Part shown: positions 11,210-51,179 of the stretch, piece by piece
How the letters are laid out: each line of letters opens with the position of its first letter
How positions within the stretch are numbered: position 1 is the first letter of the stretch
NCBI GenBank assembly: GCA_035448805.1
Contig: DAOTJR010000003.1
Coordinates: 66,062-130,061 of the forward strand
Source of the DNA: Syntrophales bacterium
GTDB taxonomy: Bacteria; Desulfobacterota; Syntrophia; Syntrophales; UBA8958
Direction: 5' to 3'
Length of the DNA: 64,000 bases
Notes under the pieces: model-generated
Told to the model about the DNA's origin: nothing
The model's database searches: none
Seen by the model: the letters and a program-made list of their open reading frames with translations, nothing else
Translations under genes and position numbers: made by a program

Positions 11210-11268
11210 AGATGCCCGTCATTTTTTGTTGACTTCCCCAACCTGTCGTGTTAAGAGGCGCTGCGCCG

Positions 11269-11553: not shown

Positions 11554-11908
11554 AATCGCCAACTGGGTCGTCCTCGCCGTTTTAGTCCTCACCGGTGCCT
11601 TCCTGTTTTCCCTGAAATTCACCCTGGGCATCCTTCTGGGCGGTCTGATCAGCATCGTCAACTATCACTGGCTCTGCCGGGACGTAAAGAAGGTCTTTCA
11701 ACACCTTACCGACCGTGCCAAGTCCCGGATCATGTTCAAATACTACATCCGCTTCGGGGTGACTGCCGTCGTCCTCTATTTCATCGTTTCCAGCGGCATC
11801 GTGGACGTCATCGGCCTGCTGATCGGACTTTCCACGGTCATTGTCAATATCGTTTTAACTGCCGTCATGGCGCTATCAAAAAAAAATTGCGTTGAGGAGG
11901 TCAATTAG
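11513..11908 (+). CDS. atpI: ATP synthase protein I (AtpI-like)
   Basis: 131-aa four-helix membrane protein directly upstream of atpB. GTG start. The 41-nt overlap with the preceding gene makes the start uncertain. Confidence 0.55.
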   Translation: MNLTGKDPLQQRLEIANWVVLAVLVLTGAFLFSLKFTLGILLGGLISIVNYHWLCRDVKKVFQHLTDRAKSRIMFKYYIRFGVTAVVLYFIVSSGIVDVIGLLIGLSTVIVNIVLTAVMALSKKNCVEEVN

Positions 11909-11911
11909 AAG

Positions 11912-12571
11912 ATGCACAGTCTGTCTTTCCTGCAATTGATATTACCGGGGGTTCCCACATATATCACGTATACGTGGTTCGTGATGGTCCTGTTGGCCCT
12001 CTTTTCCTTCCTGGCCACCCGTCGTCTTTCTCTGACGCCGGGGGGGTTCCAGAACACTATGGAGGTCTTCGTCAGCGCCATCGACAAGTTGCTCATCGAC
12101 ACGATGGGCCCTCATGGGAAGAGATTTTTTCCCCTTATCGCCACCCTGGGTTTCTTCATCCTCACCTCGAACCTCATCGGTCTGATTCCCGGGCTGGAGT
12201 CCCCGACGGCCAACTTGAACACCACCGTGGCCATGGCCCTTGTGGTCTTCTTCCTGACCCACATCGTCGGCGTCCAAATCCAGGGCCTCAAATACTTCAA
12301 ACAGTTCCTTGGCCCGGTCTGGTGGCTGACCCCCCTGATGCTGCCTATCGAACTCGTCAGCCACATCTCCCGGCCCGTCTCCCTCTCCATGCGTCTTTTC
12401 GGGAACATCGAAGGCGGTCACATCGTCCTCTTCGTTCTGTTCATCCTCGTCCCGTTGCTGGTGCCCCTGCCCATTCTCGTCCTGAAACTCCTGATTTCCT
12501 TCATCCAGACCCTGGTCTTCATGCTCCTGTCCATGATGTACATCGCCGGGGCAATGGAAGAACATCATTAA
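11912..12571 (+). CDS. atpB: F0F1 ATP synthase subunit a
   Basis: 219 aa. Conserved SLSMRLFGN (essential Arg), NLIGLIPG and the C-terminal helices [15 protein letters not shown]. Confidence 0.9.
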
Positions 12572-25345: not shown

Positions 25346-28300
25346 TCAGAAGATATTGTATATCTGCTCCAGCTCTTCTTCGTTGGTGAAACCGTTGAGA
25401 TCCACGGCGTTCATCCGGCACGAGGCCGTACACACCCCGCAGCCCTTGCACAGCACCGTGTTCACCTCCGCACAGGCCTCCACGACGTTCACGGAAATGG
25501 CGCCGAAGGGGCAGTTCTGTTCACAGAGACCGCAGGCGGCGCAACGCTCCTTGTTCACGTAGGCCGTCTTGCCCTCCGCCTCGATGAAATCCTTCGTGAG
25601 GATGGTGCTGGCCCGGGACACCGCGGCGTTGGCCTGGACAATGGCGTCCTCGCTGAGCTTCGGGGCATGGGCCATGCCGCACATGAAGACGCCGTCGGTG
25701 GCGAAATCCACGGGACGGAGCTTCACATGGGCCTCGAGGAAGAAGCCGTCCTGGTTCGTGGGCACCTTGAGCATCTTGCCGATTTCCTCGTTTTCCGGGT
25801 TGGGCACGGTACCGACGCTCAAGGCCAGGAGATCCGTCTTGAACTCCACCGGGGCGTTCATGACGGGATCGAAGACCCGGAGGGAGAGTTGGTCGCCCTG
25901 CTGGATCACCTCCGGCTTCCGGTCCTCGTCATAGCGGATGAACCGGACGTTCAGCTCCCGGGCCTTCTTGTAGTAGTCCTCTTTCAGGCCGAAGGTACGG
26001 ATGTCGCGGTAGACGATGGTGACCTCCCGGGTCGGATCCAGCTCCTTGAGCTTCAGGGCGTTCTTCATGGCCTCGGAACAGCAGTAACGGCTGCAGTAGG
26101 GCCGTTCGGGAATCCGGGAGCCCACGCACTGGATCATGGTCACGCTGCGGGCCTTGAGGGCCTTGTCTTCCTTTTCGGCAATGAGCTTTTCCAACTCCCG
26201 CTGGGTGACGACCTGGGAAGACTGACCGTAGAGATACTCCTTGGTTTCCAACTCATAACCGCCGGTGGCCACGATGACCACGCCGTGCTCGAACTGCTCT
26301 TCCCCGTCCCGGGTGGTGATGGTGGTCTTGTAGTTGCCGATGAAGCCTTCGATTTTCTTGATGGTCGCCCCGGTGTAGGCATGGATGAGCTTGCTGGCCT
26401 GAACCCTGTCCAAAAGGGACTTCAGATGCTTGCGGGTGTCCAGTCCTTCCAGGGTGTAATAGAGTTTCCGGTAATTGCCTCCCAGGACCGGCTCCTTCTC
26501 CACGATGTAGGACTCGTAGCCCTGATCGGCCAGGGAGAGGGCCGCCGTGATGCCGGCCAGGCCGCCGCCGATGATGAGGGTGGCGTGGTTGACAGTCAAC
26601 TGCCCCGGTTTCAGGGGCTTGAGGAACTGGGCCTTGGCGACGGCCATCCGCACGAGATCCTTGGCCTTTTCCGTGGCCTCCTCGGGTTCGTGCATGTGCA
26701 CCCAGGAGTTCTGATCGCGGATGTTGGCCATCTCGAAGAGGTAGCGGTTGAGCCCCGCCTTTTCACAGTTCTCCTGGAAGAGCCCTTCGTGGGTCCGGGG
26801 GGAGCAGGAGGCCACGACCACCCGGGTAAGGTTCTGTTCCTTGATCACCTCGCCCATCTTCACCGCCGTATCCTGGGAACAGGTGAAAAGGTTGTCCGTG
26901 GCGAAGACGACGTTGGGCAGGGTCTTGCAGTATTCCACCACCTCGGGGACATTGACAACGCCGCCGATGTTGATGCCGCAGTGACACACGAAGACGCCGG
27001 TCCGGGGGCCGAGGCCCCGGAGATCGGATTCCAGAGGCAGCTCTTCCTCCGTGATCATCGTCCCCCGCCGGGCGGCCAGGATCCCCGCCGCGCAGGCCGC
27101 GGCGCCGCTGGCTTCCATAACCGTCTCGGGGATGTCCTTGGGGCCGCCGAAAGCGCCGCACACAAAGACACCGTTCCGGGTGGTCTCCACCGGGTTCTCC
27201 AGGGCGGTCTTGCAGAAGCCGTGCTCCTCGAGTTCGATCCCCAGGGCCTGGGCCAGCGCCGCCGCCTCCGGGGGCGGGCAGAGGCCCACGGAGAGGACCA
27301 CCATGTCGAACTCCTCTTCGATAAGGCTGCCGTCCTCCTGGACGTATTTCAAAAGCAGGTTCTTGGACTGCTGCAGTTCTTTGATCGTCGAGGGCATGGA
27401 GCGGATGTAGCGGATCCCGTATTCGTCCTTCGCCCGGTTGACGAAGCGGTCGAAATCCTTGCCGTGGGCCCGGATATCCATGAAGAAGATCGTGGGTTCG
27501 AGTTCCTTGGCGTGTTCCTTGCCGATGATGGCCTCCTTGGTGGCATACATGCAGCAGACGGAGGAGCACCAACTGTTGCCGCAGGAGGTGTCCCGGGAAC
27601 CGACACACTGGATGAAGGCGATCTTCTTCGGCTCCCGACCGTCGGAGATGCGCTGGACATGGCCGAAATAGGGCCCCGAGGCGGAGAGGATCCGCTCGAA
27701 CTGGATGCTGGTGACCACGTTCTGGTAAATCCCGAAGCCGTATTCGCCCCGGAGCCGGGCGTCGAAAACCTCGAAACCCGGCGCGGCAATGACGGCGCCG
27801 ACTTCGATGGTCTCCTCCTCGAAGGTATCGTCATGATTGATCGCCCCGGCGATACAGGCCTCGACGCACTGATAGCATTCCGAGCAGATCCCGCAGGCAA
27901 GGCAGCGCTTGGCTTCCGCCACGGCCTCTTCCTCGGTGAAGCCGATACCCACCTCCTGGAAGTTCGTTCTCCGGTCTTCCGGTTTCATGTGGGGGTATTT
28001 CCTCCGCGGGACCTTCGCGACCTTGGAGACGTCGGCCTTGTCGGCCAGCCCCTTGGTCCAGTCCTTCGCCCGGCCCGCCGCCACGTCTTCGCCCCGGAGA
28101 TACCGGTCGATGGAAACCGCCGCCTCCTTGCCGGCATAGACGGCCTTCACCACCGTCGCGGGACCGGTAACCACGTCGCCGCCGGCAAAGACACCCGGGG
28201 TGGTCGTGGCGAACGTCACCGGATCGACTTCGAAATTTTTCCACTTGTTGATGGAAATGCCGCTCTCTTTGGGAACGAAATCGAGGTCCGCCTCCTGGCC

Positions 28301-29782
28301 GATGGCGGGGATCAGGGCGTCACAGGGGACGATGAATTCCGAACCCTTGATCTCCACAGGACGGCGGCGGCCGCTGGCGTCAGGCTCGCCCAGCTCCATG
28401 CGGGTGCATTCCACGCCCGTGACCTTGCCGTTCTCGCCCACGACTCGCTTGGGGGCCACGAGGAATTCCATCTTGATGCCCTCTTCCAGGGCCTCTTCGA
28501 TCTCTTCGGGGGAGGCGGGCATTTCGGCCCGGGAACGGCGGTAGAGGATGAAGACGTCTTTGGAACCGGTGCGGATGGCCGTCCGGACGGCGTCCATGGC
28601 GACGTTACCGCCGCCCACCACGGCGACCTTGTCACCCAGGAAGACCTTCTCCCCCAGGTTGACCCGCTTCAGATAATCGACACCGTGAATGACCCCCTGC
28701 AGATCCTCGCCGGGGATGTTGAGCTTGCTGCTGTTGACGGTGCCGCAGCCGATGAACACCGCATCGAAGTCGCTCTGGAGTTTCGCGAAGGGGATGTCCT
28801 TGCCGACGGCGGTGTTGAGATGGATCTTGACCCCCAGATCCTCGATGACCTTGATCTCCGCCCGGAGGACGTCCTTGGGGAGGCGGTATTCGGGGATGCC
28901 CACGGCCAGCCAGCCGCCCGCCACGGGAAGGGACTCGAAGACCTCCACGTCGTAACCCTCGGCGGCGAGATAGTAGGCGCAGGTGAGGCCCGCGGGACCG
29001 GCGCCCACCACGGCGATCTTCTTGCCCTTGCTCTCCTTCTTCTCCGGGATGAAACGTGTTTCGTCTTTCAGATCCAAATCGGCGACGAAACGCTTCAGAT
29101 GCATGATGTCGATGGGCTCTTCCACCTTGCCCCGCATACACGCCGTTTCACAGGGGTGGTTGCACACCCGGCCGCAGACGATGGGGAAGGGATTGTCCTT
29201 TTTGATGAGCTTCAGGGCCTCTTTGTATTTTCCCGCGGCGATCAGGGCCACATAGCCCTGAACGCTGATGTGGGTGGGACAGGCCGCCTTACAGGGAGAG
29301 GTGCCCAGCTTGTCGATGGCGTAACCGCTGGGAATCGCCTGGGGAAACTTACGATAAGTCGCCTGGCGCTCGGAGAGATTCTCGTTGAAATCGGAGGGGA
29401 CGTTGATGGGGCAGACCTTGGCGCAGTCGCCGCAGCCCGTGCACTTGTTCAGGTCGATGAACCGGGGGGCTTTTGTCATCCGGACCTTGAACTTCCCCGC
29501 CTCCCCCTCGACCGCGTTCACCGTGCGCCGGGTAAGGATCTCCACGTTGGGATGGCGGCCCACCTCCACCAGTTTCGGGGACAGGATGCAGGCGGAACAA
29601 TCGTTGGTGGGAAAGGTCTTGTCGAGCTGGGCCATGACGCCGCCGATACTGATGTCCTTTTCCACCAGATAGACCTTCAAGCCGGAGTTGGCCAGATCCA
29701 GGGAAGCCTGGATGCCGGCGATACCGGAACCGACCACCATAACTGCACCGATTTTTTCATTGTCATTGATCACGTGAGACAC
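25346..29782 (-). CDS. Giant HdrA-type flavoprotein (HdrL-like): two HdrA modules with an inserted GltD/NfnB-like NAD(P)H module, 1478 aa
   Basis: - N terminus VVGSGIAGIQASLDLA, TNDCSACILSPK, CTGCGDCAKVCP.
- aa ~160-565 (nt ~28088-29305): CGRVCNHPCETAC, KKIAVVGAGPAGLT, VAVVGGGNVAMD, GVFAGGDVVTG.
- Then CVGSRD...CSSVCC.
- A second FAD module TLIIGGGLAGITAAL, CVGSR...CSRYCC.
- C-terminal CAACGLCEQNCP / CKGCGVCTASC. Confidence 0.85.
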   Translation of the reverse strand: MSHVINDNEKIGAVMVVGSGIAGIQASLDLANSGLKVYLVEKDISIGGVMAQLDKTFPTNDCSACILSPKLVEVGRHPNVEILTRRTVNAVEGEAGKFKVRMTKAPRFIDLNKCTGCGDCAKVCPINVPSDFNENLSERQATYRKFPQAIPSGYAIDKLGTSPCKAACPTHISVQGYVALIAAGKYKEALKLIKKDNPFPIVCGRVCNHPCETACMRGKVEEPIDIMHLKRFVADLDLKDETRFIPEKKESKGKKIAVVGAGPAGLTCAYYLAAEGYDVEVFESLPVAGGWLAVGIPEYRLPKDVLRAEIKVIEDLGVKIHLNTAVGKDIPFAKLQSDFDAVFIGCGTVNSSKLNIPGEDLQGVIHGVDYLKRVNLGEKVFLGDKVAVVGGGNVAMDAVRTAIRTGSKDVFILYRRSRAEMPASPEEIEEALEEGIKMEFLVAPKRVVGENGKVTGVECTRMELGEPDASGRRRPVEIKGSEFIVPCDALIPAIGQEADLDFVPKESGISINKWKNFEVDPVTFATTTPGVFAGGDVVTGPATVVKAVYAGKEAAVSIDRYLRGEDVAAGRAKDWTKGLADKADVSKVAKVPRRKYPHMKPEDRRTNFQEVGIGFTEEEAVAEAKRCLACGICSECYQCVEACIAGAINHDDTFEEETIEVGAVIAAPGFEVFDARLRGEYGFGIYQNVVTSIQFERILSASGPYFGHVQRISDGREPKKIAFIQCVGSRDTSCGNSWCSSVCCMYATKEAIIGKEHAKELEPTIFFMDIRAHGKDFDRFVNRAKDEYGIRYIRSMPSTIKELQQSKNLLLKYVQEDGSLIEEEFDMVVLSVGLCPPPEAAALAQALGIELEEHGFCKTALENPVETTRNGVFVCGAFGGPKDIPETVMEASGAAACAAGILAARRGTMITEEELPLESDLRGLGPRTGVFVCHCGINIGGVVNVPEVVEYCKTLPNVVFATDNLFTCSQDTAVKMGEVIKEQNLTRVVVASCSPRTHEGLFQENCEKAGLNRYLFEMANIRDQNSWVHMHEPEEATEKAKDLVRMAVAKAQFLKPLKPGQLTVNHATLIIGGGLAGITAALSLADQGYESYIVEKEPVLGGNYRKLYYTLEGLDTRKHLKSLLDRVQASKLIHAYTGATIKKIEGFIGNYKTTITTRDGEEQFEHGVVIVATGGYELETKEYLYGQSSQVVTQRELEKLIAEKEDKALKARSVTMIQCVGSRIPERPYCSRYCCSEAMKNALKLKELDPTREVTIVYRDIRTFGLKEDYYKKARELNVRFIRYDEDRKPEVIQQGDQLSLRVFDPVMNAPVEFKTDLLALSVGTVPNPENEEIGKMLKVPTNQDGFFLEAHVKLRPVDFATDGVFMCGMAHAPKLSEDAIVQANAAVSRASTILTKDFIEAEGKTAYVNKERCAACGLCEQNCPFGAISVNVVEACAEVNTVLCKGCGVCTASCRMNAVDLNGFTNEEELEQIYNIF

Positions 29783-30570: not shown

Positions 30571-31950
30571 TCAATCCCGTTCGATGGTAATGCCGAACTT
30601 TTCCAGTTTCCTCTCGAAAGTAGGCCGCGAGATACCGAGAATATCGCACAGTTCACCCTTGGTGCGGTGGTTGTTCTCCTTGATGACTTTCCTTATATAC
30701 TGTTCCTCCACCTCTTCCAGAGTCAGGGGCCGGCCGCTGCCTGTTTCCGTAAAATCCACCGGTTTGCTCTCCGCGGCGGCAAAGGCATCTTCGGAAAGAT
30801 CGGGGAAATCACCCCTGGTCAGCACCTGGCTTTTGGCGACCACCACCGCCCGGGTGAGAAGATTTTCCAGCTCCCGGACATTTCCCGGCCAGCGGTATTT
30901 CATGAAGATATCCATCATCTCGTCGGAAACGCCGATTACCTTCTTGTGCAACTCCCGGTTGATCTTGGTCAGGAGATAATCCACGAGGACGGGAATGTCC
31001 TCACGCCGTTCCCGCAGGGGGGGGATGCGGATGGAAACGATATTCAGTCGGTAGTAAAGATCGTCACGGAACTTGCCCTCCTTGACCATTTGTTTGAGAT
31101 CCTTGTTGGTCGCGGTGATGATCCGGGCGTTGACCTTGATGGAATCCTTGCCGCCCACCCGCTCGAAGTCCATCTCCTGGAGGACGCGCAAGAGTTTCGC
31201 CTGTAAATTCAATGACATTTCACTGATCTCGTCGAGAAACACCGTGCCGTAACGGGCCAGTTCGAACTTGCCCAGTTTGCGGGTGATCGCCCCGGTGAAC
31301 GATCCCTTTTCGTGGCCGAAGAGCTCCGACTCCAGAAGTGTTTCCACGATCGCCGAGCAGTTGACGGCAATGTATGGTTCCTCCGGGGAGGTGTTGTTGT
31401 GGATGACCTTGGCGATGAGTTCTTTTCCCGTACCGCTCTCCCCTTGAATGAGGACGGTGGTCCGGCTCTGGGAGACGACGCCGATGGTCTTGAAGATCTC
31501 CTTCATCTCCTTGGTTTTGCCGATGATGTCGCCGACCTTGAAACTCCGGGACGGCTCGTTGAGAAGGCCGCTGATCTTCTTTTCCATCTCCAGGGTTTTC
31601 AGGGCCTTCTTGATGGCCATATCCAGTTCTTCCACATTGATGGGCTTATGGATATAATCGAAGGCCCCCCCCTTCATGGCTTTTATCGTCGAGTCCATAT
31701 CGTGATAGGCAGTGATCATCACCACCTTCACGTTTTCATCCTCATCCCGCAGATCCTCCAGAACCGTGAAACCGTCGATGTCGGGGAGACGGATATCGAG
31801 GATGACGAGGTCGGGGTTGTGTTTCACGTAGGCATTGAGACCCTCGGTTCCCGTGGCGGCGGTATAGACCGTGTATCCCTCCTCTGTTAGATAGAGTTCG
31901 AGACTCTCCGCAATGGAACTGTCGTCGTCGATAACGAGAATCTTTGCCAT
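30571..31950 (-). CDS. Sigma54-dependent response regulator (NtrC/AtoC family)
   Basis: Receiver domain (DLVILDIRLPDIDG, K at HKP), AAA+ core (GESGTGKE, GSFTGA, FLDEI, RFIAT-like ARIITATN) and a C-terminal Fis-type HTH. Confidence 0.9.
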   Translation of the reverse strand: MAKILVIDDDSSIAESLELYLTEEGYTVYTAATGTEGLNAYVKHNPDLVILDIRLPDIDGFTVLEDLRDEDENVKVVMITAYHDMDSTIKAMKGGAFDYIHKPINVEELDMAIKKALKTLEMEKKISGLLNEPSRSFKVGDIIGKTKEMKEIFKTIGVVSQSRTTVLIQGESGTGKELIAKVIHNNTSPEEPYIAVNCSAIVETLLESELFGHEKGSFTGAITRKLGKFELARYGTVFLDEISEMSLNLQAKLLRVLQEMDFERVGGKDSIKVNARIITATNKDLKQMVKEGKFRDDLYYRLNIVSIRIPPLRERREDIPVLVDYLLTKINRELHKKVIGVSDEMMDIFMKYRWPGNVRELENLLTRAVVVAKSQVLTRGDFPDLSEDAFAAAESKPVDFTETGSGRPLTLEEVEEQYIRKVIKENNHRTKGELCDILGISRPTFERKLEKFGITIERD

Positions 31951-31973: not shown

Positions 31974-34016
31974 CTACATGTCCAGAGGCAGGGTGATGAG
32001 TACCTTCGTTCCCATCCCTTTCGCGCTTTCAATGTCGATGTTGCCCTTGTGAAGGTCGATGATCTTTTTTACCTGGGTCAGGCCCAGGCCCGTCCCATAT
32101 CGCTTCTGAGTAAAAAAGGGGTTGAAGAGATGGGCCAGGGTCTCCTCGTCCATCCCGCAACCGTTGTCGGTTATCTCGATGGTAACGGCGTGGGGCTGGC
32201 TGCCGGATTCCCGGGCGGAAACATGGAGTTTCCCGTCCGCCTCCATGGCTTCGATGGCGTTACGGAAGATGTTCTGTAAGGCCTGCTCCAGCATGGCGCC
32301 ATCGATGATCGGATGGGGGAGCTCTTCCTCCACTGCCAACGTGACCGCGACATGCTTGTCGCTAAGGGATTTCTGCACCATCTCCAGGGCATTCTCGATC
32401 GTGCGGCGCAGATCCGTGGGCATCCGTTTCGGTTCTCCCGGTCTGGCGTAGATCAGGACATCGTTCACCAGCTCCTCCAGGTGTTCCACTTCCCGCTGGG
32501 CGATCCGGAAACGCTTCAGATCGTTGCCCGACGGCTGCAGCCGCTTTTCGAGAATCTGCAGACTCATTTTGATCGAGGAAAGGGGGTTGCGGACCTCATG
32601 GGCGATTCCCGCCGAAAGCTGACCGATGGCCGCCAGTTTCTGGCTTTCGTAGTATTTCTTTTCCAATTCCTTGAACTCGGTAATCTCCCGGCGTACCAAC
32701 ACGTACCGGTCCGTCGCGCCCTTGAGGGGACAGGGGGTGATCAGCAGAAACTGCTTTTTACCATCACTGCCGTTCACCTCCATTTCAAAAGGTTTGAAAT
32801 TGCCCTTTTTTATCTCTTCCCACCTTTCCAGCAAAAAATCTTTATGTGCCGGTGCGTATTCCGTGAAATGCCGCCCCTTGATTTGCGAAGCCAGCAGCCC
32901 GTCGCTCCTCCGGTCCCGGCTTACGAAGGTGATGATCCCTTCGCTGTCAAGCTCGAAGAGGGTGTCCGGCGAGCTTTCCAAAACCGTCTGCATGTAATTG
33001 TACAGCCCCTCGATCTCCTTACGGAGCCGGATGTTTTCCTTCAGTTCATTTTCCAGAGTTTCGGCGTATTCCTTCAAATGCCGGGACATCTCCTCTTCCC
33101 GGGTGATGTCCTGCAGGGTTTCCACGGCGGCGATGACCTGCCCCTTGTCATCACGAATCGGGGCCGCCAGGAAATAAAGGTGACGGCTTCGTCCGCCGAT
33201 ATTGGGATAGAAGTCCCAGGCCTCGTAGGCCCCTTCGATTATCGGTGATTTCTGGACATTCTTTTTACCGTAGAATTTTTCCAGCTTCTCGATGTCGTCG
33301 TCCACGATGAGATCGGCAATCACCGGACGCTTTTCCGGGTAAAAGGGCACGTACTGGCGATCCGTCCCGATGAAATGCTTCCCATCATAGCCGCTCAATT
33401 CCGTAAAGGCCCGATTCCAGAACATAATCCGGTGATCCTTACCGATGACGAACATCGGGATGGGCGAGCCTTCGATGATGCCTTCGATCGTCTTTCGCAG
33501 GGTAATGTTCTTCTCCAGCTCGTCGCGGAGATTATCGGCATACTCCTTCAGGCTCAGTTCCATGAGCCTTTCCCGGGTGACGTCCTGCAGAGTTTCGACG
33601 GCGGCGATGATCTCCCCCCGCTCGTCATAGATAGGGGCGGCCAGGAAATAGAGGTGACGGCTCTGCCCTCCCAGATCGACATAGAAATCCCGGGCCTCGT
33701 AAGCCCCGTGGACCTTGAGGGATTTTTTCACCCGTTTGCCGCCGTAGTATTTTTCCAGGCCGACAATGTCCTGATCCACGATGAGATCGGCGATCAACGG
33801 CCTTTTCGTCCCGTAAAAGGGCATGTAGTGTTTGTCGGTGCCGATCATGTCCGCCGCGGCAAAACCGGTGAGTTCTTCACAGGCCTTGTTCCAGAAGATC
33901 ACCTCATGTTTGCGGTCGATGACAAAGGTAGGAATAGGCGAACCCTCGATGATGCCGACGATCACCTTCCGTTCCTGAACGAGTTTTTCTTCGGCGGCCC
34001 GCGTCATGTTTCTCAT
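31974..34016 (-). CDS. Cytoplasmic multi-PAS sensor histidine kinase
   Basis: 680 aa with no TM segment. Two nearly identical about 160-aa PAS-like modules (IIEGSPIP.FVI...RHLYFLAAPI...AAVETLQD.TRE), a third PAS, the H-box IAHEVRNPL and the ATPase G-box GTGLGL. Confidence 0.9.
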   Translation of the reverse strand: MRNMTRAAEEKLVQERKVIVGIIEGSPIPTFVIDRKHEVIFWNKACEELTGFAAADMIGTDKHYMPFYGTKRPLIADLIVDQDIVGLEKYYGGKRVKKSLKVHGAYEARDFYVDLGGQSRHLYFLAAPIYDERGEIIAAVETLQDVTRERLMELSLKEYADNLRDELEKNITLRKTIEGIIEGSPIPMFVIGKDHRIMFWNRAFTELSGYDGKHFIGTDRQYVPFYPEKRPVIADLIVDDDIEKLEKFYGKKNVQKSPIIEGAYEAWDFYPNIGGRSRHLYFLAAPIRDDKGQVIAAVETLQDITREEEMSRHLKEYAETLENELKENIRLRKEIEGLYNYMQTVLESSPDTLFELDSEGIITFVSRDRRSDGLLASQIKGRHFTEYAPAHKDFLLERWEEIKKGNFKPFEMEVNGSDGKKQFLLITPCPLKGATDRYVLVRREITEFKELEKKYYESQKLAAIGQLSAGIAHEVRNPLSSIKMSLQILEKRLQPSGNDLKRFRIAQREVEHLEELVNDVLIYARPGEPKRMPTDLRRTIENALEMVQKSLSDKHVAVTLAVEEELPHPIIDGAMLEQALQNIFRNAIEAMEADGKLHVSARESGSQPHAVTIEITDNGCGMDEETLAHLFNPFFTQKRYGTGLGLTQVKKIIDLHKGNIDIESAKGMGTKVLITLPLDM

Positions 34017-34189
34017 CCCTTTTCTTTCTTTTTATCCCTATGCTCCTTTATCGCCATAAGGATGTAAACGCCCACGGCGGCGCCGAGGGAGATGATAAGG
34101 TTGACCAGGCCGCTTTCAATGCCTATCACCCGCTGGCAAATCAGCCACACCACCAGATAAGTGACGGCCGTCAATATTTCTTGCATCAT
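34013..34189 (-). CDS. Small two-helix membrane protein, translationally coupled to the kinase gene
   Basis: ATG ATG at 34189/34186 is preceded by AAGAGG. 58 aa, two hydrophobic helices and a Lys-rich tail. Its stop overlaps the kinase ATG (ATGA). No recognisable family. Confidence 0.45.
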   Translation of the reverse strand: MMQEILTAVTYLVVWLICQRVIGIESGLVNLIISLGAAVGVYILMAIKEHRDKKKEKG

Positions 34190-34529
34190 CAAACCTCTTG
34201 AAGGATATTTATGATCCCGTCGGATCATTTGACAGCTCATTGATAATACTTGCCTATTCCTGAAATTTCAATCAAAATATACTTTTATGTGAAACCAATC
34301 CTATGTTGTTGAATATATTGAACTATATGCTATATGGATCCCGGGGGCCAAAGTTTTCTTCCCGCGAATCGGGACGTGGGGATTGGACGTTTCATTCAAC
34401 GCCGGCCCGCAATTTAATGAAATGTTCAACGTTCCTGTTGCCCCACCGGGGGGCGGCAAGGTCGAATTTAAAAAAATTGTCGTGTGTTTGTAGTTTCTTA
34501 AGGACCATCGGTTCCGATGCCGTCGGTAA

Positions 34530-34545
34530 TGGCATGTCTGTTGCA
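34530..34545 (+). promoter_or_regulatory. Sigma54 (-24/-12) promoter
   Basis: TGGCATGTCTGTTGCA matches TGGCAC-N5-TTGCW at 15 of 16 positions, with correct GG-N10-GC spacing. It lies 105 nt upstream of the ATG at 34650, next to a divergent sigma54 activator gene. Confidence 0.7.
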
Positions 34546-34649
34546 GATCCCGGCGCAGTTTAAAAAAATATTTCCCTTCCCCGGACACCGGAAGTGTGTT
34601 AAGGAGGGGGAAAAGATCTTAAGTTCAAGATACGAAAGGAGAAGAAAAG

Positions 34650-35027
34650 ATGTTAGGGAAATTTGGAAAGAAGTTGTTAACACTCATGACGACGATGGCA
34701 GCGGTACTTTTATCATCACCGGTCGTATTTGCAGCGGAAGCTCTGCCTGCCGCCGGCGATTCTTACGTTAAGGTGATCTACGCGGTGGGGGCCATGGTTG
34801 CCGCCGGTTTTGCCATCGGTCTGGGCGCCATCGGCGCCGGCGCCGGTATCGGTAACGCCGCCAACGGGGCCTGCCAGGCCGTCGGAAGAAACCCGGGGGT
34901 TCAGGGTAAGATCATGACCGTGATGCTGGTCGGTATGGCCATGGCGGAATCCGTTTGTATTTATGCCCTGGTTGTGGCGCTGGTTCTTCTCTATGCCAAC
35001 CCCTACGTAAAGTACTTTTTGGGTTAA
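34650..35027 (+). CDS. F0 c-subunit-like proteolipid, paralog 2, with a signal-peptide-like N terminus
   Basis: AAGGAG RBS. 125 aa. N terminus ends VFA/AE. GAGAGIGN helix 1, RNP loop, AMAESVCIY carboxylate motif and LYANP. No other ATP synthase gene is adjacent. Confidence 0.8.
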   Translation: MLGKFGKKLLTLMTTMAAVLLSSPVVFAAEALPAAGDSYVKVIYAVGAMVAAGFAIGLGAIGAGAGIGNAANGACQAVGRNPGVQGKIMTVMLVGMAMAESVCIYALVVALVLLYANPYVKYFLG

Positions 35028-35078
35028 TCCGACCAATGAAATTAACTTCAAAATGAACTACAGTTAGGGGGAAAAAGA

Positions 35079-36392
35079 ATGTCAGAGAAGAAACAAGATA
35101 AGCAGTTTTTCACTGTCGCGAGGGTATTCTTCCTGCTTATCGTAATCCCCTTATCACTGATGGCGATCCTCATCGCCAATGGGATTTTCAAATTAGGGGT
35201 TACAGTAAAAGAGCGGGCTGTGACCGTTCTGGACCAGAAATCTCAGGAAGAAATCAAGATACGTGCCATGAACATCGCCGATGAAGTGTCGAACTTCCTT
35301 ACGGAACGAAAGAAGGACGCCCTCATCGCCACGATCATCCCGGCCACGGAATCGGCATACAAACAGTTTGTCAACGAGAACCGCCGCAATATCTGGATCA
35401 AGGAAGGCGACAAGTTAAAACAGATATCCGTCCCCGTGTACACGGAAATGACTCTCATCGACAAAAGCGGCAACGAGGTCATCAAGATCACCAACGGCGA
35501 AATCGCACCCAAATCCCGGCTCACCAACGTGAGCATCCCGGCGAACACCACCTACAAATCGGAAACATACTTCGCCTCGGCCAAGTCCATAAACAAGGGC
35601 GACGTCCATGTTTCCCCGGTGACGGGATGGTATGTGAACCGTGCCGATTTCGAAAAGGGTAAGCGCTTCTCCGGGGTCATCCGTTTTGCCACGCCGCTGT
35701 ACGGCCGGGAAGGTCTGCAGGGGGTAGTGCAACTGGCCCTTGATTACCGACATCTCGCCGCTTATACCGACCACGTAATTCCCACTCAGGCGACGCCGGT
35801 CTTCGAAGCGGACGCCTCAACCGGTAATTACGCCTATATGGTCGATAATCGGGGACTGATGATTTCCCACCCCAACGATTATCACATCGAAGGGCTCTAT
35901 CCCGACGGCAGGCCGGTACCGGCGCTGACGGAGCAGACCTCGGCGGAAATGACGAAAAAGGGTGAAGAGGTACTCAACCTCAACCTCATGGGTTTTATCG
36001 ATCCCAATCTGCCTTTGATCGCCAAGGATGCCGCGGCGGGGAAAGCCGGCATCAAGACCTATAAGTTTGCCGGACACACCAAGTTCGTGGCGTACGCACC
36101 CATAAAATTCTTTACCCAGGAATATCCCGCTCCGGGAGGTTTCGGATGGGTAGGCATGGGTGTGGATGTCGAGAAATTCAACGAGGCCGCCGCCAAGGCA
36201 ACCCAGAACATCCAGAAGGAGGCGAAAGCCTGGTCCACGACGATCATCCTGATCCTGGTGATATCCATTATCCTCCTGTTCGCCATTGCCGGGCTGTTGT
36301 CCAGAGGTATCTCCCGCTCCATCGCGGCCGAAGTGCCGGCCGACGCCCAGGGGGAGGGACCTTTCTACGATGACGAGGAAGAAGATAAATAA
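35079..36392 (+). CDS. Membrane protein with a periplasmic double-Cache-like sensor domain and no output domain
   Basis: 437 aa. TM1 (aa ~15-37), a roughly 330-aa extracytoplasmic region with Cache-type patterns (YAYMVDNRGLMISHPN, KFVAYAPI), TM2 (aa ~385-407), then only about 30 residues ending in an acidic tail. Confidence 0.75.
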   Translation: MSEKKQDKQFFTVARVFFLLIVIPLSLMAILIANGIFKLGVTVKERAVTVLDQKSQEEIKIRAMNIADEVSNFLTERKKDALIATIIPATESAYKQFVNENRRNIWIKEGDKLKQISVPVYTEMTLIDKSGNEVIKITNGEIAPKSRLTNVSIPANTTYKSETYFASAKSINKGDVHVSPVTGWYVNRADFEKGKRFSGVIRFATPLYGREGLQGVVQLALDYRHLAAYTDHVIPTQATPVFEADASTGNYAYMVDNRGLMISHPNDYHIEGLYPDGRPVPALTEQTSAEMTKKGEEVLNLNLMGFIDPNLPLIAKDAAAGKAGIKTYKFAGHTKFVAYAPIKFFTQEYPAPGGFGWVGMGVDVEKFNEAAAKATQNIQKEAKAWSTTIILILVISIILLFAIAGLLSRGISRSIAAEVPADAQGEGPFYDDEEEDK

Positions 36393-36410
36393 AGCCCCAT
36401 ACCGATGAAA

Positions 36411-36441
36411 AAAGGCCGGATTTGATCCGGCCTTTTTTTTT
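36411..36441 (+). terminator. Rho-independent terminator after the Cache gene
   Basis: AGGCCGGA-TTTGA-TCCGGCCT followed by nine T. Confidence 0.8.
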
Positions 36442-36557
36442 CCCCCCACCCCGGGGGGGTGTAATATCTTTCCGTTTGACTTCACAATTGATTATTGATA
36501 AATGCAGCCGTGTCTTTCTTAATACCTCGGTAAACATCTACAGACAGGAGGAATCCC

Positions 36558-38966
36558 ATGAATGATAACAGACTGGTCATCTGGTTCGACGAACTGCAAC
36601 TTGGCGACATCCCTCAGGTGGGTGGGAAAAACGCCTCCCTGGGCGAAATGCGCCGGGAGCTGATTCCCAAGGGAGTGAACATCCCCGACGGATATGCGGT
36701 CACCGCCCATGCCTATCGCTACCTGCTGCAATCGGCGGGCATTTTCAACGAAATAAAGGCGGTTTTATCCGACCTGGATACCCATAACATCGAAAATCTC
36801 AAGGCCCGAGGCCACAAGGTCCGGGAACTCATCTACAACGCGCCCTTCCCCGCAGATCTGACCGCCGCGATCATCGAGGCCTACCGGAAGCTCTGTGAAG
36901 AATACGGAGAAAACACCGATGTAGCGGTAAGAAGTTCCGCCACGGCGGAGGACCTCCCCGACGCCAGCTTTGCCGGTCAGCAGGAGACATACCTCAACAT
37001 CACCGGGGAAGCGGCGCTGATCGAGGCCTGCAAGCGCTGTTTCGCCTCCCTCTTCACCGACCGGGCGATTTCCTATCGCGTGGACAAGGGATTCGACCAT
37101 ATGTCCATCGCCCTGTCCATCGGCGTGCAGAAGATGGTCCGTTCCGATCTTGCGGCCTCGGGAGTCATTTTCTCCATCGACACGGAATCGGGCTTCAAGG
37201 AAGCCGTACTGATCACCGGTGCCTACGGACTGGGGGAGACGGTGGTGCAGGGAACGGTCAATCCCGATGAGTTCTACGTCTTCAAGCCGACCCTCAAACA
37301 GGGATACCGCCCCATCGTCCAGAAAAAGCTCGGCACCAAGGAAATCAAGATGGTCTACGCCGCGCATCAGGGGGGGGAGGCCACCGAAACGGTTTCGGTT
37401 CCCGTGGAACAGCGGCGCAAGTTCTGTCTCAACGATGACGAGATCCTGAAGTTGGCCCGCTGGACCACCATCATCGAAGATCACTACTCCCAGCAGGCCG
37501 GGTATTTCAAGCCCATGGACATCGAATGGGGCAAGGATGGACGCACGGGTGAACTGTTCATCCTCCAGGCCCGTCCGGAAACGGTTCAGTCCCAGAAGGA
37601 CGCCAGCGTCCTGGAAAGCTACGTCCTCCAGGAACAGAAAATACCCCTGGTCACCGGTACGGCGGTGGGTTCCAAAATCGGCGCCGGTCCGGCCAATATC
37701 ATCGAGTCCGTGGATCAGATCATGAACTTCAAGAAAGGAGAGGTCCTGGTCACCGACATGACGGACCCGGACTGGGAACCGGTGATGAAAATCGCCGCCG
37801 CCATCGTCACCAACAAAGGGGGCCGGACCTGCCATGCCGCCATCGTGAGCCGTGAACTCGGCGTCCCCTGCATTGTGGGCACGGAAAACGGCACCACCGC
37901 CCTCAAGGGTGTGAAGGAAGCGACGGTCTCATGCGCGGAAGGCGAGATCGGCAATGTCTATGAGGGCATTCTGAAATTCGATGTCCAGCGGGTGGACGCC
38001 AAAAACCTGGAACGTCCGAAGACACAGATCATGATGAACGTAGGCAACCCGGAAAACGCCTTCAACCTCGCCGCCATTCCCAACGACGGCGTCGGTCTGG
38101 CCCGGCTGGAGTTCATTATCAACCAGTTCATCAGCATCCACCCCATGGCCCTGATCCAGTTCGAGAAGGTGACGGATCCCGCCATCCGGGAAAAGATCGC
38201 CGCCCTTACCCACGGCTACGACAACCGGGCCGACTTCTTCGTGGATAAGCTGGCCCAGGGGGTGGCCAAGATCGCCGCCGCCTTCTACCCCCACGACGTC
38301 ATCGTCCGGATGAGCGACTTCAAGAGCAACGAATACAAGAACCTCATCGGCGGCCAGTATTTCGAAATGGACGAAGAGAACCCCATGATCGGCTTTCGGG
38401 GGGCCTCCCGCTATTACGATGAGCGCTACCGCGACGCCTTCGCCCTGGAATGCGAGGCCATGAAGAAGGTCCGCAACGAAATGGGGCTCGTCAACGCCAA
38501 ACTGATGATCCCCTTCTGCCGCACCGTGGAGGAGGGGAAGAAGGTCGTCGATTTGATGGCGGAAAAGGGCCTCGTGCGCGGGGAAAACAATCTGGAGATC
38601 TACATGATGGTGGAGATTCCCAGCAATGTCATCCTCATCGAGGAATTCGGCAAGATCTTCGACGGCTTCTCCATCGGTTCCAATGACCTGACCCAGCTCA
38701 CCCTGGGTCTGGACCGCGACTCCTTCCTCATCTCCCACATCTTTGACGAGCGCAATCAGGCCGTCATGGATCTTATCCGGATCGCCATCACCAAGGCCAA
38801 CAAGATGGGGAAAAAGATCGGAATCTGCGGCCAGGCCCCCAGCGATTATCCGGAATTTGCCCGCTTCCTGGTGGAATGCGGGATCAGCAGCATCTCCCTG
38901 AACTCCGACACGGTGATCAAGACCACCATCGACATCAAAGAAACGGAGAAGGCCCTGGGAAAATAG
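36558..38966 (+). CDS. ppsA: Phosphoenolpyruvate synthase
   Basis: 802 aa. ATP-grasp N terminus, phosphohistidine motif GGRTCHAAIVSRELGVPCIVG and C-terminal PEP-utilising motif GICGQAPSD. Confidence 0.95.
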   Translation: MNDNRLVIWFDELQLGDIPQVGGKNASLGEMRRELIPKGVNIPDGYAVTAHAYRYLLQSAGIFNEIKAVLSDLDTHNIENLKARGHKVRELIYNAPFPADLTAAIIEAYRKLCEEYGENTDVAVRSSATAEDLPDASFAGQQETYLNITGEAALIEACKRCFASLFTDRAISYRVDKGFDHMSIALSIGVQKMVRSDLAASGVIFSIDTESGFKEAVLITGAYGLGETVVQGTVNPDEFYVFKPTLKQGYRPIVQKKLGTKEIKMVYAAHQGGEATETVSVPVEQRRKFCLNDDEILKLARWTTIIEDHYSQQAGYFKPMDIEWGKDGRTGELFILQARPETVQSQKDASVLESYVLQEQKIPLVTGTAVGSKIGAGPANIIESVDQIMNFKKGEVLVTDMTDPDWEPVMKIAAAIVTNKGGRTCHAAIVSRELGVPCIVGTENGTTALKGVKEATVSCAEGEIGNVYEGILKFDVQRVDAKNLERPKTQIMMNVGNPENAFNLAAIPNDGVGLARLEFIINQFISIHPMALIQFEKVTDPAIREKIAALTHGYDNRADFFVDKLAQGVAKIAAAFYPHDVIVRMSDFKSNEYKNLIGGQYFEMDEENPMIGFRGASRYYDERYRDAFALECEAMKKVRNEMGLVNAKLMIPFCRTVEEGKKVVDLMAEKGLVRGENNLEIYMMVEIPSNVILIEEFGKIFDGFSIGSNDLTQLTLGLDRDSFLISHIFDERNQAVMDLIRIAITKANKMGKKIGICGQAPSDYPEFARFLVECGISSISLNSDTVIKTTIDIKETEKALGK

Positions 38967-49664: not shown

Positions 49665-50690
49665 ATGCTAATGAAAAAACATTTGTTCACTGTACTGACG
49701 ATCGTTTCCATGATCTTGACATTCAGTGCCGGCGCCGCCCGCGCCGCCACCACGCTGACTTACAGCATCTTTTTCCCGGCGAGCCACGGGCAGGCCAAAA
49801 CCGGAGAAGCCTGGGCCAAGGAGATCGAGAAGCGGACCAACGGGCAGGTGAAGATCACGATCCTGGCCGGGGGATCCCTGACCCCGGCCGACCAGGTCTA
49901 TGACGGGGTCCTTAAGGGGATCTCCGATTTGGGCATGTCCTGTTTCGCCTATACCCGCGGGCGTTTTCCCGTTATGGAAGTCCTCGATCTTCCCATCGGC
50001 TATCCCAACGGTCGCGTCGCCACCGCTGTGGCCAACGATTACTTCCGAAAATTCAACCCCCAGGAACTCAGCGGCGTCAAGGTCCTCTATCTCCACGCCC
50101 ACGGACCGGGCCTGCTCCACACGACCCGCCCCGTTTCCACTCTCGAGCAGCTCAAGGGCATGAAGATCCGTTCCACCGGACTCAGTGCCAAAGTGGTGTC
50201 CGCGCTGGGGGCCGTTCCCGTAGCCATGCCCCAGGGTTCCACTTATGAATCCCTGCAGAAGGGTGTAGTCGAGGGGACCTTCGGACCCATCGAGGTCCTC
50301 AAGGGCTGGAAACAGGCGGAGGTCGTCAAGTCCACCACCGACTGCCCCGAGATCGGCTACACCACCGTCATGTTCGTCGTCATGAACCTCAAGAAGTGGA
50401 ACTCCCTGCCCAAGAATATCCAGAAGGTCTTCGAAGAGGTGAGCAGCCGGTGGATCGATATTCACGGCAAGGTCTGGGACGATCTCGATCAGGAAGGCCG
50501 CCGCTACACCCTCAGTCTCGGCAACAAGATCATCCCCCTGAGCAAACAGGAAGCGCTCAAGTGGAAAAACGCCGTCCGCCCCATCCTCAACGAATATATT
50601 AAAACCACCACGGCCAAGGGTCTCCCCGGCCGGACGGCGGTCACCGAGACGGAAAAAATGATAAAGAAATACTCGAAGATATACAAATAA
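49665..50690 (+). CDS. TRAP transporter substrate-binding protein (DctP family)
   Basis: 341 aa. Signal peptide ending AARA/AT and the DctP-family pattern (GQVKITI..GGSL, KGMKIRS). Followed by Q and M subunit genes. Confidence 0.85.
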   Translation: MLMKKHLFTVLTIVSMILTFSAGAARAATTLTYSIFFPASHGQAKTGEAWAKEIEKRTNGQVKITILAGGSLTPADQVYDGVLKGISDLGMSCFAYTRGRFPVMEVLDLPIGYPNGRVATAVANDYFRKFNPQELSGVKVLYLHAHGPGLLHTTRPVSTLEQLKGMKIRSTGLSAKVVSALGAVPVAMPQGSTYESLQKGVVEGTFGPIEVLKGWKQAEVVKSTTDCPEIGYTTVMFVVMNLKKWNSLPKNIQKVFEEVSSRWIDIHGKVWDDLDQEGRRYTLSLGNKIIPLSKQEALKWKNAVRPILNEYIKTTTAKGLPGRTAVTETEKMIKKYSKIYK

Positions 50691-50693: not shown

Positions 50694-51179
50694 ATGATGC
50701 AAAGAATCGAAAGCATCCTCTACAATCTGAGCAGAAAGGCCGGTCTCACCGCCGGGGCAGCCGTGATCCTCATGATGCTCCTTACCTGCACCGACGTGGT
50801 GATGCGGTTTTTTAACCGGCCCCTGCCGGGAACTTATGAGATCGTCGGGTTTCTCGGCACCTTCGCCGTTGCCCTCGCCCTGGCTGCCACCTCCGTGGAA
50901 AAGGGTCATATCGCCGTCGATCTGTTGGTCAACCGCTTTCCCCAGCGGCTGCAAATCCTTATCGACGCGGGCGGCTCCCTGTTCGGATTCGTCCTCTTCG
51001 CCGCCCTGACCTGGCAGAGTTCCCTTTACGCCCTGGATCTCCGCCAAAGCGGCGAAGTCTCCGCCACCCTCGGTATGCCCGTTTATCCCTTCGCCGCCGG
51101 AATCGCCTTCGGTTGCGCCCTCCTCTGCCTGATTCTCATCACCGATTTCAGCCGCTCTATCCGGAGGATGCTTTCATGA
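50694..51179 (+). CDS. TRAP transporter small permease (DctQ family)
   Basis: 161 aa, four hydrophobic helices. Sits between the P and M genes; its stop overlaps the M start (ATGA). Confidence 0.8.
   Translation: MMQRIESILYNLSRKAGLTAGAAVILMMLLTCTDVVMRFFNRPLPGTYEIVGFLGTFAVALALAATSVEKGHIAVDLLVNRFPQRLQILIDAGGSLFGFVLFAALTWQSSLYALDLRQSGEVSATLGMPVYPFAAGIAFGCALLCLILITDFSRSIRRMLS

Follow-up and report, generated by a model that had tools for sequence, protein, structure and literature searches.

The gene for an F-type ATP synthase c-subunit (c2) and the gene for a sensor-only double-Cache (dCache) membrane protein form, as predicted from sequence, a sigma-54-dependent two-gene operon in the Syntrophales window (the whole 64-kb stretch of DNA analysed here), and the c-then-Cache order was kept in every informative related locus. 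The literature searched contained no description of this pairing, in agreement with the preliminary description of this DNA, whose author knew of no system of such composition, and the pairing appears to be undescribed. Our best explanation, which we hold tentatively, is an inducible c-subunit isoform with a dedicated, sensor-derived membrane partner acting on the c-ring.

Promoter, regulators and conservation of the pair

The pair, its control elements and the divergently transcribed genes beside it are listed in order of position.

30571 to 31950, minus strand: NtrC/AtoC-type response regulator and sigma-54 activator, 459 aa (Pfam)
31974 to 34016, minus strand: soluble PAS-PAS-PAS histidine kinase, 680 aa (Pfam PAS, HisKA, HATPase_c)
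34013 to 34186, minus strand: small conserved membrane protein, ~57 aa from an internal Met (longest ORF to 34240)
34390 to 34422, plus strand: candidate enhancer (UAS) for an NtrC-type activator, palindrome TTTCATTCAA-N13-TTTAATGAAA
34530 to 34545, plus strand: sigma-54 -24/-12 element TGGCATGTCTGTTGCA, a conserved consensus match
34635 to 34641, plus strand: c2 ribosome-binding site AAAGGAG, 8 nt before the start codon, read from the sequence
34650 to 35027, plus strand: c2, leader-bearing F-type ATP synthase c-subunit paralog, 125-aa precursor (profile matches)
35028 to 35078, plus strand: c2-Cache spacer, 51 nt, in which no terminator-like site was found
35079 to 36392, plus strand: sensor-only dCache membrane protein, 437 aa (fold search)
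36414 to 36441, plus strand: intrinsic terminator GGCCGGA-TTTGA-TCCGGCC followed by T9, ending the pair

Each feature listed in the preliminary description was found where it had been placed, the sigma-54 promoter upstream of c2 included. TGGCATGTCTGTTGCA is the sole exact match to TGGCAY-N5-TTGCW on either strand of the window, where 0.05 matches are expected by chance. It has the GG-N10-GC core with TGGCAC-N5-TTGCW flanks, is intergenic and correctly oriented, and leaves 105 nt between its end and the c2 ATG at 34650. A relaxed form of the element was present in 73 of 75 Syntrophales loci (0.0025 expected per locus), at -514 to -585 from the Cache ATG, and its GG and GC were invariant among the loci that carry it. 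In the alignment of related loci the element appeared as an island of identity, with the surrounding intergenic DNA diverged. The putative UAS block was first noticed in this alignment as another conserved stretch. The pattern TT[CA]AA-N11-15-TT[GT]AA occurred in 56/75 related loci, its median position being -134 nt relative to the -24 element, against a background expectation of 0.0125 per 300 nt; it was revealed only by a spaced-palindrome search, and ungapped anchoring of the upstream regions showed the -24/-12 element alone. The cognate activator and upstream site that go with a sigma-54 promoter are represented here by the adjoining NtrC-type gene and this predicted palindrome, and the operon is probably activated by the adjacent regulator through this putative site at -134. 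The Pfam domains of the activator (Response_reg, Sigma54_activat with E 1.2e-67, AAA_lid_14 and HTH_8) and of the PAS kinase bear out their earlier identification. Comparison of neighbourhoods for NtrC-type regulators, also proposed earlier, found a divergent kinase or activator gene at 59 of the 65 loci with at least 4.5 kb of upstream DNA.

The strong terminator described after the pair was missed by our consensus scan and confirmed by folding: the hairpin within 36396-36445 had a free energy of -23.1 kcal/mol (z = -7.0), and none of 200 shuffled sequences was as stable. Rfam was scanned with the 5' leader, the spacers, and the long spacer between c and Cache in locus L086, and no family came close to its gathering score; what weak matches there were overlapped the terminator hairpin and nothing else.

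In 76/76 Syntrophales loci the gene immediately before Cache, in the same orientation, was a c gene, and the same order was found in 47/47 loci of a second set, mostly of a Desulfomonilia-type clade that is only ~40% identical. These counts took in only loci with enough upstream DNA (123 informative), so adjacency, order and strand were invariant in 123/123 loci across two clades. Conservation in relatives had been set beforehand as one of the points on which the preliminary description could be refuted, and on this point it was not refuted; the invariance itself had been overlooked in it. Across the Syntrophales loci the c-Cache spacer had a median of 51 nt (range 36-64). Loci of the second set carry the pair ahead of rnf/nfn genes, under a sigma-70-like promoter, and their flanks (PHO4, rnf, nfn-like) differ from those in Syntrophales. 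Neither a sigma-54 motif nor an adjacent two-component system was found in the Desulfomonilia-type loci, and the c gene paired with Cache there is of the generic, c1-like type. This indicates that the Cache-like partner is not specific to the specialised isoform. Taken together, the conserved promoter, the palindrome and the invariant pairing support the regulated two-gene membrane module that had been proposed.

The c-subunit genes and the Cache-like protein

c2 passed the cut-offs of both F-type c-subunit profiles, PF00137 ATP-synt_C (E 4.4e-17, 62.5 bits, cut-off 24) and TIGR01260 (46.5 bits, cut-off 43.95), in keeping with its earlier description as a 125-aa F0 c-like proteolipid. Its sequence directly shows a leader ending in VVFAAE, the helix motif GAIGAGAGIG, the loop GRNPG and the carboxylate in AMAES, and the AxA-site leader, GxGxGxG helix, RNP loop, carboxylate and LYANP were kept across 78 orthologs. 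The helical hairpin of a c-subunit is present, with GxGxGxG in helix 1, a polar R(N/Q)P loop and the carboxylate in helix 2. The c2 clade, whose signature is GAC(Q/S)AVGRNPGVQGKIM...MAMAES, supplies the c gene that precedes Cache in every Syntrophales locus, and its derived positions include a conserved Cys and the loop RNP-GV-QG, as against RNP-EA-QG. In canonical enzymes this loop is cytoplasmic and faces F1.

Two more specialised assignments were rejected. c2 is not an N-ATPase c-subunit, scoring 61.4 bits against the TIGR03322 cut-off of 130.85, with no second Glu and no atpDCQRBEFAG operon around the gene. Nor does it appear Na+-specific, for it lacks the complete set of Na+ ligands, Gln or Glu in helix 1 together with ES(T)xxY in helix 2: aligned to I. 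tartaricus c, it has Ile at the helix-1 Gln position, with ESVxxY in helix 2. Dibrova et al. (PMC2881411) call the F-type enzyme of S. aciditrophicus H+-specific. By its sequence features, c2 is a genuine H+-type F-type c-subunit with a cleavable-looking leader. It is also a conserved paralog of c1, a further c gene that stands alone. This gene and the ATP synthase genes of the window are as follows.

4120 to 4493, minus strand: c1, the other stand-alone c-subunit paralog, 124 aa (tblastn and ORF listing)
11248 to 11553, plus strand: atpZ (PF09527)
11513 to 11908, plus strand: atpI (PF03899)
11912 to 12571, plus strand: atpB (PF00119)

c1 and c2 share 61% identity over the mature part, and c1 likewise has a leader. 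By eye, the c1 promoter is sigma-70-like, with TTGACA ~150 nt upstream and an AT-rich -10 region, and a ribosome-binding site was read from the sequence; a consensus scan upstream of c1 found no sigma-70 promoter. On this basis c1 appears to be driven by a sigma-70-type promoter. Its syntenic slot is conserved in Smithella. Both c1 and its promoter had been overlooked in the preliminary description, as had the missing atpE: no atpE or other c-subunit ORF follows atpB in the atpZ-atpI-atpB cluster (11248-12571).

As stated earlier, c2 lies 22 kb from this cluster and has no adjoining ATP synthase gene. That orphan location had been taken to distinguish c2, which it does not. c1 is as solitary as c2, and a stand-alone c gene is the norm in this lineage; since atpZ-atpI-atpB comes without atpE, both c1 and c2 are "orphans" here, and the enzyme must take its c-subunits from stand-alone genes. 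To set the module apart from housekeeping ATP synthase, as had also been suggested, went too far, as c2 keeps every F-type hallmark. Because these hallmarks are kept, because orphan c genes are normal here, and because the paired c of the sister clade is generic, the c2-Cache module is more likely to act together with the F1Fo rotor than separately.

The ORF 51 nt downstream of c2 has the layout previously described, a TM1-Cache-like-TM2-acidic tail protein of 437 aa. Its N-terminus is inside, followed by TM1 (~14-37), the ectodomain (~38-384), TM2 (~385-408) and a 29-residue acidic tail ending in DDEEEDK. Pfam searches had been suggested for both proteins of the pair; the expected c-subunit match was obtained, and the expected dCache_1 match (PF02743) fell short, at 30.6 bits against a cut-off of 45. 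Other family members exceed the dCache_1 gathering score, namely P0121 (55.0), P0122 (47.2) and P0124 (57.7). A sequence search of solved structures gave nothing meaningful (best E 0.098, Surface protein G), so a fold search was needed. The AlphaFold model (pLDDT 76, pTM 0.70) had dCache ectodomains of kinases and chemoreceptors as its top Foldseek matches, with probability 1.0, and more than 50 matches to dCache ligand-binding domains were obtained at this probability with target-normalised TM-scores of 0.5-0.7. In the model, a predicted double PAS-like (PDC) fold with a long stalk helix lies between the two TM helices, which supports the dCache assignment.

Profile search after TM2 found no HAMP, PAS, HisKA/HATPase or MCP domain. 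Relatives at 33-55% identity carry HAMP, PAS or GAF together with kinase or MCP outputs, and those further removed are ordinary sensors whose genes have no c gene close by. The Cache-like protein therefore has the architecture of a histidine-kinase or chemoreceptor sensor half that stops 29 residues after TM2. Between it and the N-terminal periplasmic parts of the kinases at these loci tblastn gave no matches at 1e-4, indicating that it was not copied recently from the sensor of the kinase next to it. TM1 is its most conserved segment (0.93, compared to 0.75 for the ectodomain, within each clade); one TM1 motif is common to both clades, and the acidic tail is also kept in both.

We propose that c2 would enter the F1Fo rotor as a conditionally expressed isoform, with the Cache-like protein as its dedicated membrane partner. 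As it has no output domain, this partner can act only via its two TM helices and short acidic tail. These parts may contact c-subunits or the assembled c-ring, so that occupancy of the periplasmic pocket would control ring assembly or rotation, as a gate or a brake. To our knowledge, a protein stably bound to a rotating ring is without precedent in bacterial F-type enzymes, and we count this against the proposal. The generic type of the c gene paired with Cache in Desulfomonilia, and the kinase relationships considered below, also speak against it.

A further-reaching form of the proposal, which we consider unlikely, is that the Cache-like protein is a new ligand-sensing, periplasm-facing accessory of ATP synthase, bound to the c-ring by its conserved TM1 and acidic tail and gating the assembly or rotation of the ring. 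A signal from outside the cytoplasm would in this way bear directly on the rotor. Moreover, switching from c1 to c2 under sigma-54 control in Syntrophales would alter ring properties, such as the H+/ATP ratio or F1 coupling, and would let cells at the thermodynamic limit re-gear their ATP synthase.

Alternative readings of the pair

The Cache-like protein could instead be the detached sensor of the adjacent two-component system, in effect the periplasmic sensing half of a split histidine kinase, a reading that we find possible but rather doubtful. The signal would travel within the membrane, perhaps via the small membrane protein, to the PAS kinase, which would phosphorylate the NtrC-type activator and turn on the sigma-54 promoter. 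c2 would be the only real output, and the place of the Cache gene in the operon would provide positive feedback. The closest fused relative of the Cache-like protein, the histidine kinase P0122, joins a sensor and TM module 54% identical to it to a first cytoplasmic PAS that is 46-48% identical to PAS1 and PAS2 of the adjacent kinase. A PAS of this type occupied that position in only 1 of 98 long relatives, and its fusion in P0122 favours a signalling role towards the kinase. The kinase of the window's own clade has no TM segment, while most of its orthologs have an N-terminal TM or periplasmic part; having lost this part, it may need an external sensor. The small membrane protein, conserved in most loci at 55-93% identity and predicted as a gene of 59 aa in L002, L003 and L091, is translationally coupled to the kinase. 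Its stop overlaps the kinase start, and the two are in frame in L034 and L041. The two-component system also adjoins the pair at most loci, as noted above.

Several observations argue against a detached sensor. Six Syntrophales loci keep the c-Cache pair with no two-component system adjoining, and the Desulfomonilia-type clade keeps c and Cache with neither that system nor the sigma-54 motif. Most Syntrophales kinases have a periplasmic domain of their own. The Cache-like protein also has no HAMP, PAS or other relay to pass a signal on, only the 29 cytoplasmic residues. Lastly, a detached sensor leaves the c gene as an invariant neighbour unexplained.

We consider it improbable that c2, as a ring or oligomer, forms with the Cache-like protein alone a device separate from ATP synthase, such as a ligand-gated ion path. 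The distance of c2 from all other atp genes, its derived positions (the RNP-GV-QG loop and the conserved Cys among them) and the conservation of the pair as a unit are consistent with such a device. However, location says little when c1 is just as solitary and atpB comes without atpE; c2 retains the F-type hallmarks in full; and the sister clade pairs a generic c with Cache. Nor do we know of c-rings that conduct ions without an a-subunit.

The preliminary description had offered an alternative c isoform beside an unrelated sensor-like neighbour as the mundane alternative; it has prior expectation in its favour, neither protein having been linked experimentally to the other, but such a coincidence is effectively refuted by synteny that is invariant across two ~40%-identical clades with differing flanks and promoters, and by the short spacer without a terminator, and we regard it as very improbable.

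Relation to known systems and to life at low energy yields

Acetobacterium woodii has three c-subunit genes, c1, c2 and c3. The Atp9-5 and Atp9-7 genes of Podospora anserina encode differentially regulated c-subunit paralogs (PMC4956034). The likeness to both lies in two structurally different c-subunit genes that serve one F-type enzyme under different control. Unlike in those organisms, the regulated paralog here is a stand-alone bacterial gene with a sigma-54 promoter, and we found no counterpart there of the co-encoded sensor-like membrane protein.

Helpers of c-ring assembly include bacterial AtpI/UncI (as cited in PMC2881411) and mitochondrial TMEM70 (bioRxiv 10.1101/2020.04.03.023861). 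These are small two-TM or multi-TM membrane proteins that touch c-subunits and promote ring formation, and the AtpI gene accompanies ATP synthase genes. The Cache-like partner differs from them in its ~350-residue periplasmic double-Cache domain and has no sequence relation to them. A separate atpI is also present in the window (11513-11908). AtpQ and AtpR are accessory membrane proteins of N-ATPases (Dibrova et al. 2010, PMC2881411); in contrast, the partner here is a Cache protein, and c2 is not an N-ATPase c-subunit.

In fold and in TM1-dCache-TM2 topology the Cache-like protein resembles the double-Cache sensors vpHK1S-Z8 (3lid), Mlp24 (6iop) and PctA (5ltx). DctB-type sigma-54 systems have comparable double-Cache sensors, and some of the 33-55%-identical sensor homologs adjoin sigma-54 activators. 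Unlike double-Cache sensors, the protein described here carries no HAMP, PAS, kinase or MCP module and ends 29 residues beyond TM2 in an acidic tail, and the gene that invariably accompanies its own encodes a c-subunit, not a response regulator. Epsilon, zeta, IF1 and AtpTheta are protein inhibitors of F-type ATPases, and all inhibitors of this kind known to us act from the cytoplasm or the matrix, on F1. If the Cache-like partner were a brake, it would share with them the function of a conditional enzyme block; unlike them, it would act on Fo and answer a periplasmic signal.

Syntrophus and Smithella subsist on very little free energy. For S. aciditrophicus, ATP synthase is proposed to contribute to building up the proton motive force, with membrane-bound pyrophosphatases as one example of its use (PMC4992975). 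The locus is a concrete handle on how such low-energy cells tune the gearing and direction of ATP synthase: two c genes stand under different sigma factors, one of them always accompanied by a sensor-derived membrane protein, and in the sister class the same c-Cache pairing heads rnf/nfn clusters. If the Cache protein feeds the kinase, the locus would be a clear natural split sensor kinase controlling rotor composition. If it touches the c-ring instead, it would read a periplasmic signal, as the first accessory of a bacterial ATP synthase to do so. The c-Cache pairing may indicate a new way to tune or control the cell's ATP motor.

Two stand-alone c-subunit genes

All features listed in the preliminary description were recovered, among them the ORF at 34650-35027, which it had read as a 125-aa F0 c-like proteolipid. 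This c-subunit paralog (c2) matched PF00137 (ATP-synt_C; E 4.4e-17, 62.5 bits against a cut-off of 24) and scored above the cut-off of TIGR01260. The leader with its AxA site, the GxGxGxG helix, the RNP loop, the helix-2 carboxylate and LYANP were all kept in 78 orthologs. Judged from its sequence, c2 is a genuine c-subunit isoform, F-type and H+-type. Leader-bearing c-subunits are known in bacteria, for example in Aquifex aeolicus. A Na+-type c2 was rejected, as the ligand set was absent on comparison with the I. tartaricus sequence; this agrees with the H+ specificity of the S. aciditrophicus F-type enzyme reported by Dibrova et al. (PMC2881411). Identity with the N-ATPase c-subunit was also rejected (TIGR03322 score 61, cut-off 131).

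A tblastn search with the c2 protein recovered a second paralog, c1, overlooked in the preliminary description.

Features of the window
4120-4493, minus strand: c1, second stand-alone c paralog
11248-12571: atpZ, atpI and atpB
31974-34016, minus strand: PAS histidine kinase with two tandem copies of one unusual PAS type
34013-34240, minus strand: small conserved membrane protein (~57 aa), its stop overlapping the kinase start (ATGA)
34390-34422: spaced palindrome, enhancer candidate

In their mature parts c1 and c2 share 61% identity, and the c1 leader is likewise signal-peptide-like. Positions derived in c2 include the F1-facing loop, RNP-GV-QG rather than the c1-type RNP-EA-QG, and a conserved Cys. 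By eye, a perfect -35 TTGACA at ~150 nt and a strong RBS could be read upstream of c1, where a consensus promoter scan gave no promoter. Orthologs of c1 are monocistronic too, in Smithella in a syntenic slot beside NirDL-like, HemL and Ugd genes, and are also solitary on a 4.57-Mb contig. Both paralogs occur within one genome in the window, in Smithella sp. PtaU1.Bin162 and in six loci where c1 lies convergent, ~1.6 kb downstream of the Cache gene. Neither tblastn with the c-like protein nor inspection of ORFs after atpB in the window found an atpE there, so both c genes stand alone in this lineage. The atp cluster is located apart from c2, as first described, but the orphan status is shared with c1 and not peculiar to c2.

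Invariant pairing with a Cache gene

A spacer of 51 nt, in which no terminator was found, separates c2 from the Cache ORF (35079-36392, 437 aa), and the strong terminator described as closing the pair was borne out by folding (-23.1 kcal/mol, z = -7.0). Just past it lies a GC-rich palindrome, CACCCCGGGGGGGTG (36447-36461), and directly after the terminator a PEP synthase/pyruvate,water dikinase gene (36558-38966, plus strand); the order c2, Cache, ppsA is retained in many Syntrophales loci.

The Cache family is strongly conserved: the best 120 matches were all at least 69% identical, the named ones being Syntrophales. Among species-representative genomes, 184 stretches contained relatives; nearly all of the best 80 carried the label Syntrophus, Smithella, Syntrophaceae, Smithellaceae or a higher rank. 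When neighbourhoods were compared, as the preliminary description had proposed, all 76 loci whose upstream DNA exceeded 450 nt had a c2-type gene immediately before the Cache gene, in the same orientation (spacer median 51 nt, range 36-64 nt). A second sensor-only clade, ~40% identical and with its named members assigned to Desulfomonilia and Thermodesulfobacteriota, had the c-then-Cache order in all contexts examined; in its metagenome scan a c gene was upstream in 47/47 loci having upstream DNA, a count that takes in two c2-type loci (L091 and L092). The pairing is invariant.

In the Desulfomonilia-type clade the paired c is of the generic c1-like type and the spacer has a median of 186 nt, much longer than the 51 nt in Syntrophales. 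This spacer could hold an attenuator or internal promoter setting the c:Cache ratio; the one at L086 (1598-1819) matched no Rfam family. The one promoter inspected was sigma-70-like, without a -24/-12 element. rnfABCD... and/or nfnAB-like genes follow the pair on the same strand, either as a complete rnf cluster with nfnAB-like genes or as the latter alone (L086, 3231-9124; L096, L105, L108 and others), and the upstream neighbor is often a divergently oriented PHO4 phosphate transporter. The window itself carries a 1478-aa flavin and iron-sulfur oxidoreductase (25346-29782, minus strand) with repeated Pyr_redox_2, Fer4_20 and Fer4 modules, which looks like an HdrA-like and NfnB-like fusion.

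More distant relatives are ordinary sensors without a c gene close by. P0152 is accompanied by a HAMP kinase, a sigma-54 regulator and a carboxylate transporter; P0122 belongs to an Mrp/Mbh-type antiporter cluster. With pairing in both clades and none in these relatives, the c association is confined to the two sensor-only clades and predates the sigma-54 wiring. In the P0122 context (L084, L085), the fused dCache-PAS-GAF-kinase sits amid the cluster, which also includes NfeD/Band_7, a pair of Usp genes and additional response regulators. Members of this dCache subfamily are therefore found repeatedly beside ion-motive machinery (c-ring, Rnf, Mrp).

Promoter and divergent regulators

The proposed sigma-54 -24/-12 motif, TGGCATGTCTGTTGCA (34530-34545), was the sole exact match to TGGCAY-N5-TTGCW when either strand of the 64-kb window was considered (0.05 expected by chance). 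It sits between the divergent genes, 105 nt ahead of the c2 start codon (ATG at 34650), and a 17-nt block, ATGGCATG(T/C)CTGTTGCA, formed an identity island amid otherwise diverged spacers in four loci. With one position relaxed, the element recurred in 73 of the 75 Syntrophales loci (0.0025 matches expected per locus), 514 to 585 nt ahead of the Cache ATG and with GG and GC invariant. On this comparative evidence the predicted promoter upstream of c2 is real. A palindrome, TTTC(G/A)TTCAA-N13-TTGAA(C/T)(A/G)AAA, was kept in 56/75 loci, its median position being 134 nt upstream of the -24 element (background 0.0125), the layout expected for an NtrC-family enhancer-binding protein. No known RNA element was found in the leader RNA. 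The pair forms a predicted sigma-54 operon with a candidate enhancer.

The divergent regulators also stood: an NtrC/AtoC-type activator and the PAS histidine kinase occupy the other strand, along with the small membrane-protein ORF, and a divergent kinase/activator gene adjoins the pair in 59 of the 65 loci whose upstream DNA reaches 4.5 kb or more. The kinase ORF of L034 and L041 is continuous in frame from the small membrane protein, which suggests that the latter is the kinase's membrane anchor.

A sensor module without output

The Cache protein scored 30.6 against dCache_1, below the threshold of 45, and searching solved structures by sequence gave no meaningful match. Its AlphaFold model (pLDDT 76, pTM 0.70) places a long stalk helix and two PAS-like modules between TM1 and TM2, and the model's best PDB matches were all double-Cache ectodomains of kinases or chemoreceptors (probability 1.0). 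The Cache-like ectodomain described between TM1 and TM2 is supported by the model fold, not by the profile score. An exhaustive profile search gave 450 cluster representatives; relatives at 33-55% identity are long, with HAMP, PAS or GAF and kinase or MCP modules. The family itself ends 29 residues past TM2 (...FYDDEEEDK). TM1 is the most conserved region (majority frequency 0.93 within each clade versus 0.75 for the ectodomain); its motif FF.LIV.PL...I..G..K.G is common to both clades, which also retain the acidic tail. The Cache protein is a sensor-derived two-TM protein without a transmitter. A further Cache-type membrane sensor in the window (52574-54178, plus strand; Cache_3-Cache_2/HAMP/SpoIIE, PP2C phosphatase) adjoins a TRAP transporter (DctP 49665-50690, DctM 51113-52477).

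Since the Cache protein has no output domain and its sole constant companion is a membrane c-subunit, we tentatively favor direct action on c-subunits or the c-ring. The protein would act only through its TM helices and tail, in assembly or as a ligand-dependent brake, and c2 would serve as an inducible rotor isoform. In the main alternative, held somewhat less likely, the Cache protein would be a detached sensor of the neighboring kinase. In favor of it, this kinase is soluble in the window's clade, whereas most others are anchored in the membrane and have a periplasmic part of their own. In P0122, the closest fused relative, a 54%-identical sensor and TM module is joined directly after TM2 to a PAS of the kinase's unusual type (GS.IP.FVI...WN.A..ELTG...GAYEA.DF...GG.SRHLYFLAAPI), 46-48% identical to the kinase's PAS1 and PAS2; only 1 of 98 long relatives has such a PAS in that position, which also favors this alternative. 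Against it, six Syntrophales loci without an adjacent two-component system, and the Desulfomonilia-type clade, where none is adjacent, would be left unexplained. A device independent of ATP synthase is improbable, and pure coincidence of c2 and the Cache gene scarcely credible.

Direct action on the c-ring and sensing for the kinase are not exclusive. A full-text literature search found no description in which a Cache domain and a c-subunit come together with Syntrophus, Smithella or sigma-54. Of the nearest precedents, the c paralogs of Podospora, which are differentially regulated (PMC4956034), come without a sensor-type partner; the c-ring assembly helpers TMEM70 (bioRxiv 10.1101/2020.04.03.023861) and AtpI (as cited in PMC2881411) are not such partners, nor are the N-ATPase AtpQ/AtpR proteins (PMC2881411). 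The components are familiar; the conserved c-Cache combination is not.
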